NCBI RefSeq assembly: GCF_947496775.1
Contig: NZ_CANMDU010000004.1
Coordinates: 218,426 to 282,425 of the forward strand
From: an uncultured Maribacter sp.
GTDB taxonomy: Bacteria > Bacteroidota > Bacteroidia > Flavobacteriales > Flavobacteriaceae
DNA: 64,000 nucleotides
Direction of reading: 5' to 3'
How positions within the stretch are numbered: position 1 is the first letter of the stretch; every line of letters begins with the position of its first letter. This document shows, piece after piece, positions 22,157 through 31,450 of this stretch. The notes under the pieces were generated by a model, which was given only the letters and a program-made list of their open reading frames with translations, made no database searches and was not told the origin of the DNA. Made by a program: the position numbers and the translations under genes.

Positions 22157-23173
22157 CTAACTTTTGCTATACAGACTTATAGCTTTTTCCAATTTCTTAG
22201 CAATTCGCTTGCGAAGTCTTTCAGGTTGAATTACTTCAATAGCATCACCAAAACCCAAAATCAAACGTTCCAATTCAAAGTTGATTTTCACTTTGATATT
22301 TACTTCAACACTTCCATCTTCATTTTCTTTTTCAATAATCTGTGAATGATGTAAAGGTTTAGTGACGACATAAGGAGCATTGTATTTGTCAATCCATAAT
22401 TTAATATTAGAAGCCCGTTCCCCTTGGTTAACGGTCACACCTACTATGTCTTTATAAAAGCTGTCTGCATCAAATTCATAGTTGGAATATGGAGTTGTGA
22501 AATCATAGTCAATGGAAATGATTCGGTCAAGGGCCAGATTTACTATGCCCATGTTCTTATTTCCCATCCCAATCAGAAACCATCTGTTGTTAAATTCCTT
22601 CAATAAACAGGGGTGAAAAGTAATTACATTAGCCGTAGCAGCTTTAAAAGATTTATACTCTAATTTCAAAACCACCTTTTTCTGAATAGCTTGATAGAGT
22701 TCGTCAAGCCAATGGAGTCCTTTGAGATTCTCGTTTTTATCTAAATGAATAATGGAGGATTGATGCGTCTTCTCCGTATATACTTTATCTTCTAACCGTT
22801 GAATAATTCCACCCAGTTCTGAAAACAAAGAAAAATCTTTAAACTGCTTTAGCATTTCCACCGTTTCGGAAAGCACATTCATGTCGTTCTCGGTTATCGG
22901 GATATCTGTAATGGAATAATCCTCATCTTCGTATTTGTAATACTTTCTATCATAAGCAACAATTGGAGCATTGTAACCTAGTTTATCACCGCGCATCAAC
23001 TGAATATCGAGTTGCACGGTACGTTTACTTACGTTCACTTCCCTACCCTCGTATTCGTGTAGGGCATCTGAACAGGCCTCTATCAAATCATTCAGAGTCC
23101 ATTGCCGATAGTTATTTTGAAGGCATTTGTCAATAGTTTTGTATCGGATTAGAGCGTTTTTGTTTAGGGCCAT
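22157..23173 (-). CDS. HTH + WYL-domain transcriptional regulator (WCX-like C-terminus)
   Basis: A 338-aa product with an N-terminal DeoR-like HTH (KRTVQLDIQLMR). A central WYL-type domain carries the WFL signature (NRWFLIGM). The architecture matches WYL regulators associated with defence and repair loci. Confidence 0.75.
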   Translation of the reverse strand: MALNKNALIRYKTIDKCLQNNYRQWTLNDLIEACSDALHEYEGREVNVSKRTVQLDIQLMRGDKLGYNAPIVAYDRKYYKYEDEDYSITDIPITENDMNVLSETVEMLKQFKDFSLFSELGGIIQRLEDKVYTEKTHQSSIIHLDKNENLKGLHWLDELYQAIQKKVVLKLEYKSFKAATANVITFHPCLLKEFNNRWFLIGMGNKNMGIVNLALDRIISIDYDFTTPYSNYEFDADSFYKDIVGVTVNQGERASNIKLWIDKYNAPYVVTKPLHHSQIIEKENEDGSVEVNIKVKINFELERLILGFGDAIEVIQPERLRKRIAKKLEKAISLYSKS

Positions 23174-23290
23174 TTAGGAGTATTTTTAATGAAAATACTA
23201 AATCAACCTATACTACGCAAAATAATTGCGCACATGAATCGCAAGTTTGTACCGGAATCATAAAGAAGCCGGTTCACCGACTTCATGTAG

Positions 23291-23320
23291 CGCTCTGCCG
23301 AACGCTTGGAATCGGCAGAG
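23291..23320. promoter_or_regulatory. Perfect 10-bp GC-rich inverted repeat (GCTCTGCCGA-N10-TCGGCAGAGC) in the WYL/rtcB1 divergent intergenic region
   Basis: Read directly from the sequence. It is GC-rich in an AT-rich intergenic region with no T-run, so it is a candidate operator or UTR structure. Confidence 0.4.
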
Positions 23321-23425
23321 CTAATTAAAAGGAATTATGAAATGAGCCAAAACGGATTGGCTAATATTATCCGATTTCCAAAGGCGAATTGCATCTGACC
23401 TTTGAAAAATAATAAGAATCGACAG

Positions 23426-24811
23426 ATGAAAAATAAAGTAAACATTACAGGAAAAGAATTAATCGATTTAGGTTTTCGTTCAGGAAAATGGTTTCCAGAA
23501 GCCATCGACTATATAAACACAAACCAATTAGAAGGTGAAGCTATGCTCGAGTTCTTAGAGCAATATCGCTTACCTCCTATGGTAAACTTACATGCAACTG
23601 CTGCTGAATTTGCTATAAACATCAAAGCAGAAAACCAATTGGAAGAAACCAATGTTAACTCCGTGGTAGAATCTATGAAGGTTTTAATGCGTACGCCTAC
23701 GGTAGTCAATGGTGCAGTTATGCCAGATGCTTGTCCGACTGGTCCTTCAGGAACAATTCCTGTTGGGGGTGTGGTAGTCGTAAAAAACGCCATCCATCCA
23801 GGTATGCATAGTGCAGATATTTGTTGTTCTGTAATGTTGACTGATTTCGGAAAAACGGACCCAAAACTAGTTTTGGATGCTGCGCATTCCGTAACGCATT
23901 TTGGTCCTGGTGGAAGACCACGTGGAAAACAATTTCAGCTGACCGAAGAACTATTAGCTGAGTTCAAGGCCAACAAATTATTGAGTGCCGATAAAGACAT
24001 AAGTCTCGCGAAGGAGCATTTAGGTACACAAGGTGATGGTAATCACTTCTTGTTTGTGGGTATTTCAGAAAAAACGGGTAATACTATGATGATTACGCAT
24101 CATGGTTCAAGAGCGCCTGGTGCCAGATTATATAAAAAAGGAATGCATATAGCTGAGCGATTCAGAAAAGATTTATGCCCTGCTGCCTTAAAACAAAATG
24201 CGTGGATTCCTTTTGAAACGGAAGAAGGACAGTTGTATTGGAACGCTTTACAAACCATAAGAAAATGGACAAAGTTAAACCACGAATGTATTCATAATGC
24301 CACTTTAGAAGTTTTGAAGATGGAAGCTGAAGACCGTTACTGGAATGAGCATAACTTTGTTTTCAAAGATGGAGATTTGTTCTATCATGCTAAGGGCGCC
24401 ACTCCTTTGGATGCGAAATTTATGCCTGATATTACTGGGCCTAGATTGATTCCTTTGAACATGGCTGAACCCGTTTTAATTGTCGAGGGTAAAACAACCG
24501 CAAACAATTTAGGCTTTGCACCACATGGTGCTGGTAGAAATATGAGCCGTACGCAACACAAAAGAAACAACGCCGATTTTACAAAAGAAGCATTGTTTGA
24601 TATAGAAACAGAAGGCTTAGATGTACGTTTCTTTTCTAAAGAGATTGACATTTCTGAATTACCTAGTGCTTATAAAAATGCACAAACAGTTCGTTCTCAA
24701 ATGGAAGAATATGGTTTAGGAGAGGTTATAGATGAAGTACTGCCTTATGGCTGCATTATGGCTGGAGATTTTCAGATCAATGCGCCTTGGAAGAGAAGGA
24801 GGAAGAAATAA
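23426..24811 (+). CDS. rtcB: RtcB-family RNA 3'-phosphate/5'-OH ligase (paralog 1)
   Basis: RtcB active-site motifs are present: DACPTG, GDGNHF, HHGSR, HNF and PHGAGR. The start is set at the ATG giving [17 protein letters not shown], which aligns with the RtcB2 N-terminus. The ORF-track TTG at 23402 is possible. Confidence 0.85.
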
Positions 24812-24836
24812 AAATTAATTTAGACAAAATAATACT

Positions 24837-30905: not shown

Positions 30906-30935
30906 GGGTCATGGGTTCGAATCCCATCGGTTCTG
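30906..30935 (+). other. tRNA 3'-part fragment (variable loop + T-arm ATGGG-TTCGAAT-CCCAT + acceptor 3' strand CGGTTCT-G) lacking a cognate 5' half upstream
   Basis: It has a canonical T-arm, but no D-arm or anticodon arm lies within 90 nt upstream. Confidence 0.5.
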
Positions 30936-30938
30936 AAA

Positions 30939-31004
30939 AGAACCGTAGTTCAGAGGTTAGAACAACAGACGTAGGTGTCATGGGTTCGATTCCCATCAGG
31001 CTTG
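30939..31004 (+). pseudogene. Degenerate/mosaic tRNA: 5' acceptor AGAACCG + D-arm, truncated anticodon region, T-arm, non-matching 3' acceptor CAGGCTT
   Basis: It is 66 nt long. Its 5' acceptor complements the 3' acceptor of the preceding fragment, not its own. Only 16 nt lie between the D-arm and the T-arm. Confidence 0.45.
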
Positions 31005-31005
31005 A

Positions 31006-31048
31006 AAACCTGTAGCTCAGTTGGTAGAGCACTACACTTTTAATGTAG
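31006..31048 (+). pseudogene. tRNA-Lys(UUU) 5' portion (acceptor AAACCTG, D-arm TAGCTCAGTTGGTAGAGC, anticodon stem-loop CTACA-CTTTTAA-TGTAG) without canonical T-arm/3' acceptor
   Basis: The downstream sequence gives the hairpin ATGGA-CTGAAAA-TCCAT but no matching acceptor strand. Its 5' acceptor nearly complements the 3' acceptor of the preceding element. Confidence 0.45.
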
Positions 31049-31450
31049 GTTATGGACTGAAAATCCATTTTCAACAAGAAGGTCACTTGTAAAAAGACCA
31101 CCGGATGGTCACTCCGTATAATTGACAAAAACAGTAGTTGTACATCGGTCATTATTTCCTAAAGAGGAGTAAAGACAATCATGAAGCTACTTTGAAATGG
31201 TGATTTTTTTGATGTGAAAGGCAAATCCTTTTTTAGTCATCCTTCCTTCTGGAAAACTGATAACAATTTTATTAGTAAGACAATCGGATGCATGCTATAA
31301 AACGAATTGTAACGAGTATCAAAAACCAGTATTTCCGTATCAGAAAGATGATATGCCCCTGCTGTTTTTTTAAATAGAACAAATAGTAATACATGATAAT
31401 AGTTTAACCCGTTCGTCCGTCACTAGACTGGCGGACACAAATTTTAAGTA

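Follow-up and report, generated by a model that had tools for sequence, protein, structure and literature searches.

A probable flavobacterial translation-repair locus with two RtcB ligases, candidate control units and tRNA-like RNAs in an uncultured Maribacter

Bacterial RNA-repair enzymes are known, and the signals that trigger them, the role of tRNA-like RNAs and the role of Band-7 proteins are questions addressed by the loci described here. The window analysed is a stretch of 64,000 nucleotides (nt) from an uncultured Maribacter sp. (assembly GCF_947496775.1, contig NZ_CANMDU010000004.1, positions 218,426 to 282,425), and the locus in question begins with a gene for a WYL-type regulator and continues with genes for an RtcB-family RNA ligase (RtcB1), a CCA-type nucleotidyltransferase with an HD domain (the CCA/HD enzyme), the small protein p96, a second ligase (RtcB2), the release-factor homologue PrfH, a TPR protein, two structured RNAs and an SPFH/Band-7 protein (Table 1). 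This locus is probably one partly decayed copy of a translation-repair kit that is widespread in flavobacteria and has at least two control units. It offers several experimental handles, namely a candidate palindromic operator for the WYL regulator, a putative leader-peptide attenuator, and two covarying tRNA-mimic RNAs beside the Band-7 gene.

The window proteins were mapped onto 80 related loci (designated by L-numbers) and all open reading frames (ORFs) were clustered. The divergent WYL-rtcB1 pair, with the two genes adjoining in 65 of the 80 loci, is the core of the system, and the rtcB2-prfH-TPR operon, Band-7, p96, pairs of RlaP nucleotidyltransferase genes and tRNA arrays are shuffled accessories, found at variable distance and in variable order and at times upstream of rtcB1. 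Since these genes are found together again and again in dozens of genera, in varied order, the arrangement is not a product of chance, and a linkage that outlasts rearrangement across genera argues for a functionally linked RNA-repair and ribosome-rescue locus. The original prediction, made from the sequence of the window alone, had named a lack of co-occurrence beyond this genome as a reason to abandon it; co-occurrence is seen in the 80 loci, with the order reshuffled, and the integrated tRNA-plus-rRNA damage response that it had raised as a question gains support from the conserved linkage and from a shared regulatory motif. The seven ORFs that it reported were found at exactly the same positions, and the WYL/WCX, both RtcB, the CCA-type/HD and the PrfH proteins match their families in Pfam and NCBIfam. 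The locus extends beyond the end that it was then given, with the SPFH/Band-7 gene being the next ORF downstream.

The first control unit is centred on the intergenic region shared by the WYL gene and rtcB1. The regulator scores 35 bits against the WYL family PF13280 and 62 bits against the WCX family PF25583, both above the cut-offs, as well as 95 bits against the PADLOC WYL model; its N-terminal helix-turn-helix domain is expected from the family architecture and was undetected by Pfam. A palindrome of 17 bp with the form ACGCA-N7-TGCGY lies at the rtcB1 promoter, and a second copy, detected also as repeat D3, is placed about 20 nt after a tRNA-Arg gene and just before the first of the structured RNAs. 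In 1.54 Mb of related loci the motif ACGCA-N5-9-TGCGY was counted 120 times, compared with 3-6 times in shuffled sequence (about 30-fold enrichment); it was found in 70 of the 80 loci, and 47 matches lie at most 400 nt upstream of rtcB1. The second copy is found at the same place after tRNA-Arg in L001, L011, L035, L054 and L063, with near variants in L036 and L069. The palindrome is thus probably the operator of the WYL protein, as its sequence and distribution suggest, and its presence both at the rtcB1 promoter and before the noncoding RNA (ncRNA) unit links the rtcB1 unit with the ncRNA/Band-7 unit. The original prediction had placed the WYL protein in the position that RtcR holds in enterobacteria, and the enriched palindrome in the common intergenic region fits this assignment. 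In L015 a copy of the palindrome is also seen about 113 nt upstream of p96.

RtcB1 and RtcB2 are both members of the RtcB RNA ligase family by sequence criteria, scoring 130 and 284 bits against PF01139 (cut-off 27 bits) and aligning at the metal-binding and guanylyl-histidine motifs DI(C/G)C, GNHF, H(H/S)GSR, HNF and HGAGR, and the claim of two paralogs therefore stands. The two proteins, of 460-470 aa, share 28% identity and a similar N-terminal extension. RtcB1 homologues from Flavobacteriia, Crocinitomix, Fluviicola and Saprospiraceae share 70-97% identity. The rtcB1 5' leader contains a strong 10-bp hairpin (GCUCUGCCGA...UCGGCAGAGC, 23291-23322), within a block (23183-23342) that is kept in many loci.

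The second control unit precedes rtcB2. A block with a Bacteroidetes-type promoter recurs in relatives upstream of rtcB2 and also upstream of tRNA arrays, and its consensus suggests that it functions as a promoter; a sigma-70 promoter scan was uninformative (34 sites against 34.8 expected), and Bacteroidetes promoters differ from that consensus. The promoter is followed by a short upstream ORF (uORF) of 27-28 codons, kept in place by 15 loci of several genera, which contains a covarying hairpin. Codons 21-24 of this leader ORF (27094-27103, GCUUCAGGAC) show complementarity to the 5' arm of a terminator which is nearly invariant across genera and lies 99 nt before rtcB2. When the terminator 3' arm was left out, the leaders of all six homologues were predicted to fold into the antiterminator, and the full-length leaders into the terminator. 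This layout points, as modelled, to a translation-coupled attenuator of rtcB2. The terminator-bounded noncoding unit that the original prediction placed here is thus confirmed as regards both of its terminators (26758-26790 and 27138-27172), but what lies between them is better described as a promoter, a uORF and an attenuator leader than as an ncRNA. The upstream one has a near-copy, repeat D4, at 30168-30203, after the TPR gene; both were also considered as attenuators, given an upstream GGACGCU complementary to AGCGUCC, and this was rejected as the predicted folds skip that pairing.

The operon behind this leader contains the best characterized part of the locus. The flavobacterial PrfH-CT subfamily is defined by a basic C-terminal tail (PMC12829566). 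PrfH-CT frees peptides from ribosomes cut at A1493 of the 16S rRNA and from non-stop stalled ribosomes, its partner RtcB then reseals the 16S rRNA, and the flavobacterial PrfH-RtcB pair has been studied experimentally; the E. coli PrfH has been seen bound to a colicin-E3-damaged ribosome (7sa4). The window PrfH carries the GGQ motif and the basic tail KPKRQKLKNDLKQQKWD, is adjacent to an RtcB gene and scores above the TIGR03072 cut-off, so that its sequence places it in PrfH-CT; it matches the C. gingivalis PrfH (9mor_A) with 292 bits and the E. coli PrfH (7sa4) with 139 bits. The rtcB2-prfH pair, which had been recognised as a ribosome-repair signature, is thereby corroborated by similarity to a solved PrfH. 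In the window, rtcB2 ends 95 bp upstream of prfH, and prfH follows rtcB2 in 30 of the 80 related loci. In the case of RtcB2, the TIGR03073 (release_rtcB) cut-off of 271.8 bits was missed, with scores of 158 bits for RtcB2 and 56 bits for RtcB1. A TPR homologue follows prfH in all prfH loci and is present in 41 loci in total, the window included, some of them lacking prfH; the protein has matches to several Pfam TPR families, none of which reaches the cut-off, and its tail is rich in Lys. By its conservation the TPR gene is the third member of the flavobacterial rtcB2-prfH module, one that goes unmentioned in the PrfH literature searched.

Downstream of this operon the locus carries two RNAs that mimic tRNA. 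The first, of about 204 nt, combines a 7-bp acceptor stem with a canonical D-arm and with a T-arm; a variable hairpin stands in place of the anticodon arm, and two extra arms precede the T-arm. Eight homologues with 77-100% identity show compensatory changes in 16 of 56 predicted pairs. This RNA belongs to no Rfam family, lax filters included, and its core sequence was absent from the viral contigs searched; by eye it bears no resemblance to the sarcin-ricin loop or to the 3' end of 16S rRNA. The second RNA, of about 600 nt, is kept upstream of the Band-7 gene in 17 aligned loci from many genera. Its 5' domain is followed by two modules, each with a T-arm, a closed acceptor-like hairpin and a D-arm joined by a short closing stem, which is the order of T-arm, closed acceptor hairpin and D-arm in the Rfam consensus of YrlA. 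In the 17-locus alignment 25 of 50 predicted pairs are compensatory, and standard pairing is seen in 97.9% of cells, a share that falls to 85% after shuffling and to about 40% once partners are slid. None of 500 shuffles reached the covariation score of 0.456 (compared with 0.199). An Rfam scan by E-value gave a YrlA (RF02553) match at 30972-31037 (43 bits, E = 2e-7), and matches at the same place were obtained in L063, L003 and L038 (48, 38 and 34 bits), although the gathering score of 69 was never reached. The RNA thus resembles YrlA in module layout and is not a member of the Rfam YrlA family. Profile search of the locus ORFs gave no TROVE/Ro gene. Weak Rfam matches to Thr and Phe leaders, MicC and transfer-messenger RNA (tmRNA) in the window were set aside as mere terminator or T-arm similarity.

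The protein encoded downstream of this RNA is a clear SPFH/Band-7 member by sequence (PF01145, 95 bits against a cut-off of 23.6) with weak HflK similarity, and no N-terminal hydrophobic stretch was visible by eye. The gene is present in about 18-20 of the 80 related loci and also in L083. A conserved 8-bp hairpin (GUCCGUCA...UGGCGGAC, 31410-31440) after the U run of the structured RNA, just before the Band-7 start, could control Band-7 translation. In an Aquimarina locus, the Flavo-1 RNA (RF01705) is found between Band-7 and rtcB1 (L063:9770-9853, minus strand, 51 bits against a gathering score of 42), and Rfam gave no Flavo-1 match in the WYL-rtcB1 spacer of the window; this orphan motif of flavobacteria could be part of the same regulon.

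The partial decay of the window copy is best seen in its tRNA genes. In 20 of the 80 related loci this position is taken up by arrays of 6-21 tRNA genes, with gene order largely kept, spacers of mostly 2-10 nt and CCA encoded in only 6 of 257 tRNAs, and these are L-arrays by definition; the window is left with one tRNA and a 13-nt remnant. The tRNA-Arg(ACG) is the final array gene in L001, L011, L035, L036, L041, L054 and L062, and in the window it has a G2-to-A change that creates an A2.C71 mismatch absent from relatives. Window positions 29987-30306 align to 16572-16891 of L001 and positions 30362-31448 to 18513-19594, so that, compared with L001, the window is short of about 1.6 kb carrying seven tRNAs and the array promoter. 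Given these flanking alignments and the tRNA-Phe remnant at the edge, the window has lost its tRNA array by deletion. The original prediction had read this region as a cluster of intact and fragmentary tRNA genes, which does not hold: tRNA-Arg(ACG) and the 13 nt of tRNA-Phe are the only tRNA sequences, and the supposed fragments at 30902-31069 are conserved tRNA-mimic modules. In L001 (16998-17190) and L011 (16973-17165) the array leader carries its own 42-codon ORF (MESLKRHIQLLELHICSPKWFERFYSDQLSICKQRRNTCNMC) and a terminator before the first tRNA; with this ORF and terminator, the arrays may be gated by attenuation in the same way as rtcB2.

Between rtcB1 and p96 lies the CCA/HD enzyme, the least constant member of the locus. 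Its PolyA_pol head, RNA-binding domain and HD domain score 59, 33 and 28.5 bits in Pfam, all above the cut-offs, and its translation shows the motifs GGAVID, DID, RRDLTIN, EDPLR and HD. Against the NCBIfam Cca equivalogs it stays below every cut-off, the best score being 178 against 451 bits. One NCBI protein entry matches it with 100% identity. The 25-bp gap between rtcB1 and this gene was correctly given in the original prediction, but the proposed fixed repair module of rtcB1 and CCA/HD was not borne out. The CCA/HD gene follows rtcB1 in only 2 of the 80 related loci, and additionally in L083; the remaining 78 of the 80 lack it there. The usual nucleotidyltransferase partner is a tandem pair of RlaP (PF10127), which adjoins rtcB1 in 23 related loci; RlaP was not found in the window, where the CCA/HD enzyme occupies its position, and in L083 a CCA/HD homologue adjoins both rtcB1 and RlaP, with both kinds of nucleotidyltransferase present. 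The family is sporadic across phyla, with a Psychroserpens copy between rtcB1 and two RlaP genes and a planctomycete homologue adjoining a Pnkp-like kinase-phosphatase. Because of this sporadic distribution beside other repair enzymes, the CCA/HD enzyme is regarded as a repair-linked accessory and not as the housekeeping Cca. A homologue with 60% identity is also found on a contig of an Acinetobacter metagenome-assembled genome (L081:8001-9359) in a phage-like context, with many small ORFs, an SSB gene and a 1016-aa ORF as neighbours.

The last protein of the first block, p96, gave no match in Pfam, NCBIfam, PADLOC or a PDB sequence search. Its AlphaFold (AF2) model has a predicted local distance difference test (pLDDT) score of 93.6, and its top 47 Foldseek matches in the PDB are the LexA C-terminal domain, UmuD', lambda repressor and signal peptidases, with template-modelling (TM) scores of 0.6-0.7. 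Among its more than 1000 homologues (71-96% identity), Ser23 (GNSMxP) and His61 are invariant and Lys64 is kept in at least 90%. On the basis of the Foldseek matches and the conserved Ser23 and Lys64, the S24-like assignment made earlier holds at the level of the modelled fold, and p96 is a putative Ser-Lys peptidase that has neither a cleavage-site region nor a DNA-binding domain. It was found in 20 of the 80 loci. The preceding 95 nt (in spacer 26220-26317) accompany it in 12 loci with 73-91% identity, whatever gene precedes, and since this block travels with p96, the gene seems to be its own transcription unit.

These observations can be joined into a working model. The WYL regulator would bind the palindromes at the rtcB1 promoter and at the ncRNA/Band-7 unit and switch both units on as damaged nucleic-acid ends build up, by analogy with the CARF domain of RtcR, which senses tRNA fragments. 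From the chemistry of their families, RtcB1 would seal 2',3'-cyclic-phosphate or 3'-phosphate ends to 5'-OH ends, and the CCA/HD enzyme would trim cyclic or phosphate ends through its HD domain and rebuild 3' ends. At the second unit, as its structure and conservation suggest, ribosomes translating the leader ORF normally would cover the antiterminator segment and transcription would stop before rtcB2, and when translation fails the antiterminator would form and allow read-through into rtcB2-prfH-TPR. PrfH would then free peptides from 16S-cut or non-stop ribosomes and RtcB2 would reseal the 16S rRNA, as do their E. coli and C. gingivalis homologues. The 204-nt and ~600-nt RNAs, together with the soluble Band-7 protein, may act as a scaffold, cofactor or nuclease decoy, a hypothesis modelled on Ro/Y RNA and on Band-7/b7a-tRNA pairs. 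The 6-21 spare tRNA genes of relatives would be part of the same kit, of which the window keeps the weakened tRNA-Arg(ACG) alone. The attenuator, if true, would make the expression of PrfH and RtcB2 depend directly on ribosome failure. Moreover, in this family of loci the repair genes are physically linked to inducible spare-tRNA arrays, a link shown earlier only as co-regulation in a cyanobacterium, and since the locus is common in marine Flavobacteriia it may shape survival under toxin, phage and antibiotic stress.

A more far-reaching version of this model is tentative and on balance doubtful. In this version the locus would be a self-contained emergency kit with two sensors, in which the WYL regulator reads damaged RNA ends and acts through the palindrome on rtcB1 and the tRNA-mimic/Band-7 unit, and the leader ORF gauges ribosomes and opens the terminator only upon ribosome failure. 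The tRNA-mimic RNAs, with soluble Band-7 as their scaffold, would form a new ribonucleoprotein that presents broken tRNAs to the ligase or decoys anticodon nucleases, and the tRNA arrays of relatives would complete the kit.

Some points weigh against reading the locus as a regulated repair kit. The operator, the translation of the uORF and the attenuation are all inferred for this organism. The antiterminator and terminator segments hardly vary, so that the pairing is without covariation support and the attenuator is argued from conservation and thermodynamics, and RNA hairpins explain part of the apparent conservation of the leader peptide. The palindrome after tRNA-Arg could be an RNA hairpin that ends the array transcript, and as the rtcB2 promoter has no palindrome, WYL control of the rtcB2 unit is not indicated. 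The deletion of the array and its promoter and the mutation of tRNA-Arg may mean that part of this copy no longer works. Additionally, a nucleotidyltransferase such as the CCA/HD enzyme leaves a 3'-OH and RtcB needs a 3'-phosphate, two chemistries that are not obviously compatible; the same problem has been raised in the literature for RlaP, a repair nucleotidyltransferase shown to add one or two nucleotides to RNA.

Other explanations of the locus give its parts a different weight. The tRNA-like RNAs and the residual tRNA-Arg could be the main effectors, serving as decoys or replacements against anticodon nucleases, with the ligases in a supporting role. The conservation of the tRNA mimics and the presence of up to 21 non-canonical tRNAs inside the locus in a quarter of the relatives (20/80) agree with this idea, and YrlA and array tRNAs have been proposed in the literature as competitive inhibitors or sponges. 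However, the window genome keeps all the enzymes without an array, many WYL-rtcB1 loci have neither arrays nor the Band-7 RNA within 10 kb, and no nuclease target is known, which makes this explanation unlikely.

Horizontal acquisition of the locus as a genomic or defence island that entered at a tRNA gene, with the tRNA fragments as attachment-site debris of integration and excision, is also improbable; the original prediction had seen in the locus a fit to an island at a tRNA integration hotspot. The GC contents of rtcB1, rtcB2, prfH and Band-7 (0.393, 0.394, 0.390 and 0.404) are about two standard deviations above those of the remaining ORFs (0.335 +/- 0.028), so that the raised GC noticed by eye for rtcB1 is real, if modest; the flanks differ between genera, the CCA/HD family is patchy across phyla and reaches a phage-like contig, and a tRNA-Ala gene lies just beyond Band-7. 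On the other hand, no ORF at 22-33 kb matches integrase or transposase families and no flanking direct repeats were found, empty sites not having been searched for; a tRNA 3'-end duplication at both ends of the locus has so far not been seen, and PADLOC recognised the WYL protein alone on the window locus. The supposed fragments are conserved, covarying and internal, standing upstream of Band-7 in 17 genera-spanning loci, and the sole true tRNA remnant borders the site at which array cargo was deleted from inside the locus. The tRNA-like sequences are thus conserved cargo of the locus, which does not qualify as an integrative island at a tRNA gene.

Chance adjacency of independent housekeeping genes (an RNA ligase, the CCA enzyme of the cell and a rescue factor) with ordinary promoters and terminators between them is likewise improbable, because, for all the core-gene-like conservation and spread of RtcB1 (70-97%) and the separate promoter and terminator of each unit, the linkage is retained despite changed order and orientation (L015, L070, L072, L083), 78 of 80 loci lack CCA/HD at this position and its relatives are scattered across phyla beside other repair enzymes, the palindrome is common to two units, and the noncoding blocks are tRNA-like in structure and covary.

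Taken as a repair kit, the locus has counterparts in several known systems. The rtcB2-prfH module, exemplified by E. coli ATCC 25922 and by the PrfH-CT of Capnocytophaga gingivalis, has the same order of an RtcB paralog followed by PrfH; the window adds the coupled TPR gene, the uORF-terminator leader, the second RtcB, the structured RNAs and Band-7, and its RtcB2 falls below the TIGR03073 cut-off. Burroughs & Aravind (NAR 2016) predicted RtcB-Band-7-'b7a-tRNA' repair systems, with YrlA sometimes beside Band-7. As quoted in other literature, these systems likewise bring RtcB and a nucleotidyltransferase together with a soluble SPFH/Band-7 protein and a neighbouring tRNA-like RNA in a shuffled modular 'syntax'. 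The Salmonella rsr-yrlBA-rtcBA operon (RtcR, Ro60, YrlA/YrlB) resembles the window in having a tRNA-mimic RNA in an RtcB operon next to a ligand-sensing regulator, whereas the window is without Ro60/TROVE, RtcA and sigma-54/RtcR and has WYL and Band-7 in their places; unlike the Salmonella YrlA, its two mimic modules are in tandem in a much longer RNA and score below threshold. In Anabaena the L-array stays silent until translation stress induces it, and the repressor TrcR controls it jointly with rtcB and a slipin gene. In that regulon (trn L-array, rtcB, slipin alr0740, rsgA and rimK), a supernumerary array of CCA-less tRNAs is likewise tied to rtcB and to a Band-7/slipin gene, but the Anabaena parts are dispersed and under a ribbon-helix-helix repressor, while loci of the window type are clustered, WYL-linked and combined with prfH, the window itself having no array. 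In the case of the nucleotidyltransferases, E. coli Cca has the same three-domain architecture and class II motifs as the CCA/HD enzyme, which differs in lying far below the equivalog cut-off (178 vs 451) and in forming a sporadic clade beside RtcB/RlaP or Pnkp-like genes; RlaP fills the same slot next to rtcB1 in related loci.

The original prediction was not aware of a description of this exact combination. The combination of RtcB, a nucleotidyltransferase, Band-7 and a tRNA-like RNA is a known class, as quoted from Burroughs & Aravind (2016), but the wiring is not described in the literature searched, where that paper is represented by a quotation. No description was found in this literature of the WYL-linked palindrome, the uORF attenuator ahead of rtcB2-prfH, the multi-module ~600-nt Band-7 leader RNA, the 204-nt RNA, the ultra-conserved S24-like p96, or L-type tRNA arrays physically embedded in such a locus.

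Table 1. Features of the locus, with positions in the 64,000-nt window
Feature	Position	Strand	Basis and remarks
WYL/WCX transcription regulator, 338 aa, divergent from rtcB1	22157..23173	-	Pfam, PADLOC
Palindrome ACGCAAAATAATTGCGC, candidate WYL operator at rtcB1 promoter	23215..23231	.	Motif count
RtcB1, divergent RtcB-family 3'-phosphate/5'-OH RNA ligase	23402..24811	+	PF01139 130 bits; alternative start 23426
Class II CCA-type nucleotidyltransferase with HD domain, 460 aa	24837..26219	+	Pfam domains, motifs
p96, stand-alone protein of predicted S24/S26 (LexA/UmuD'/signal-peptidase) fold, 96 aa	26318..26608	+	AlphaFold, Foldseek
Intrinsic terminator closing rtcB1-CCA/HD-p96 block	26758..26790	+	Terminator scan; hairpin -21.8 kcal/mol, U run
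Putative Bacteroidetes-type promoter TTTG-N20-TAGATTTG for rtcB2 operon	26963..26997	+	Conserved block
Leader ORF of 27 codons, MTISITYQKTLQAPGAIVVSLQDFIHA	27034..27117	+	Conserved position
Terminator of putative attenuator, GUCCGAAGC...AGUUUCGGAC + U7, ahead of rtcB2	27138..27172	+	Fold, conservation
RtcB2, RNA ligase paired with PrfH	27271..28662	+	PF01139 284 bits
PrfH, PrfH-CT subfamily with basic C-terminal tail, 230 aa	28758..29450	+	TIGR03072 232 bits (cut-off 166.65)
TPR protein, Lys-rich tail KKKLSTKKRKKKNK	29441..29986	+	Weak TPR matches; start overlaps prfH stop
Terminator after rtcB2-prfH-TPR operon	30168..30203	+	Hairpin -18.8 kcal/mol and U run; repeat of 26758 terminator
tRNA-Phe 3'-end remnant, 13 nt, right edge of array deletion	30361..30373	+	Alignment to relatives
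tRNA-Arg(ACG), last of former array, weakened acceptor stem	30378..30451	+	ARAGORN; Rfam tRNA 56.5 bits
Second palindrome copy ACGCATAATAATTGCGT, ahead of ncRNA/Band-7 unit	30475..30491	.	Repeat D3, motif count
tRNA-shaped RNA, ~204 nt	30527..30730	+	Homologue alignment, compensatory pairs
Band-7-associated structured RNA, ~600 nt	30776..31371	+	17-locus alignment; 3' end placed at U run by inference
Structured RNA, 5' domain	30776-30866	+	
Structured RNA, YrlA-like module 1	30902-30968	+	
Structured RNA, YrlA-like module 2	30972-31050	+	
Structured RNA, T-like hairpin	31053-31069	+	Followed by more conserved hairpins up to U run
SPFH/Band-7 protein, 366 aa	31451..32551	+	PF01145 95 bits (cut-off 23.6)

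Further accessory genes were met in the related loci. A smaller number of these loci encode an RNase T-like exonuclease and DUF434/DUF5616 proteins. Large proteins unmatched in Pfam are encoded right after rtcB1 in Flavobacterium, Saprospiraceae and Fluviicola, one of 589 aa in 8 loci and one of 747 aa in 7 (examples of such proteins are L026:11680-13449 and L053:3707-5950), and 10 related loci encode a 204-aa protein that has an HD-like motif. The 589-aa, 747-aa and 204-aa proteins are counted among the uncharacterised accessories of the system. A tmRNA gene (138 bits) found in an Aquimarina locus about 8 kb upstream of rtcB1 (L038:1436-1832) is probably coincidental.

With respect to the borders of the window locus, a tRNA-Ala(GGC) gene is located at 32648-32722 on the minus strand, about 100 nt past Band-7, and as similarity to relatives ends near 32590, this gene marks the right edge. 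Just upstream of the WYL gene, the minus strand (18610-22056) encodes a chimeric 1148-aa protein with VIT, CarboxypepD_reg, TonB Plug/SusC signature, TPR and DUF2135 domains, which is kept at that place only in Maribacter and close relatives and thus represents a lineage-specific left flank.

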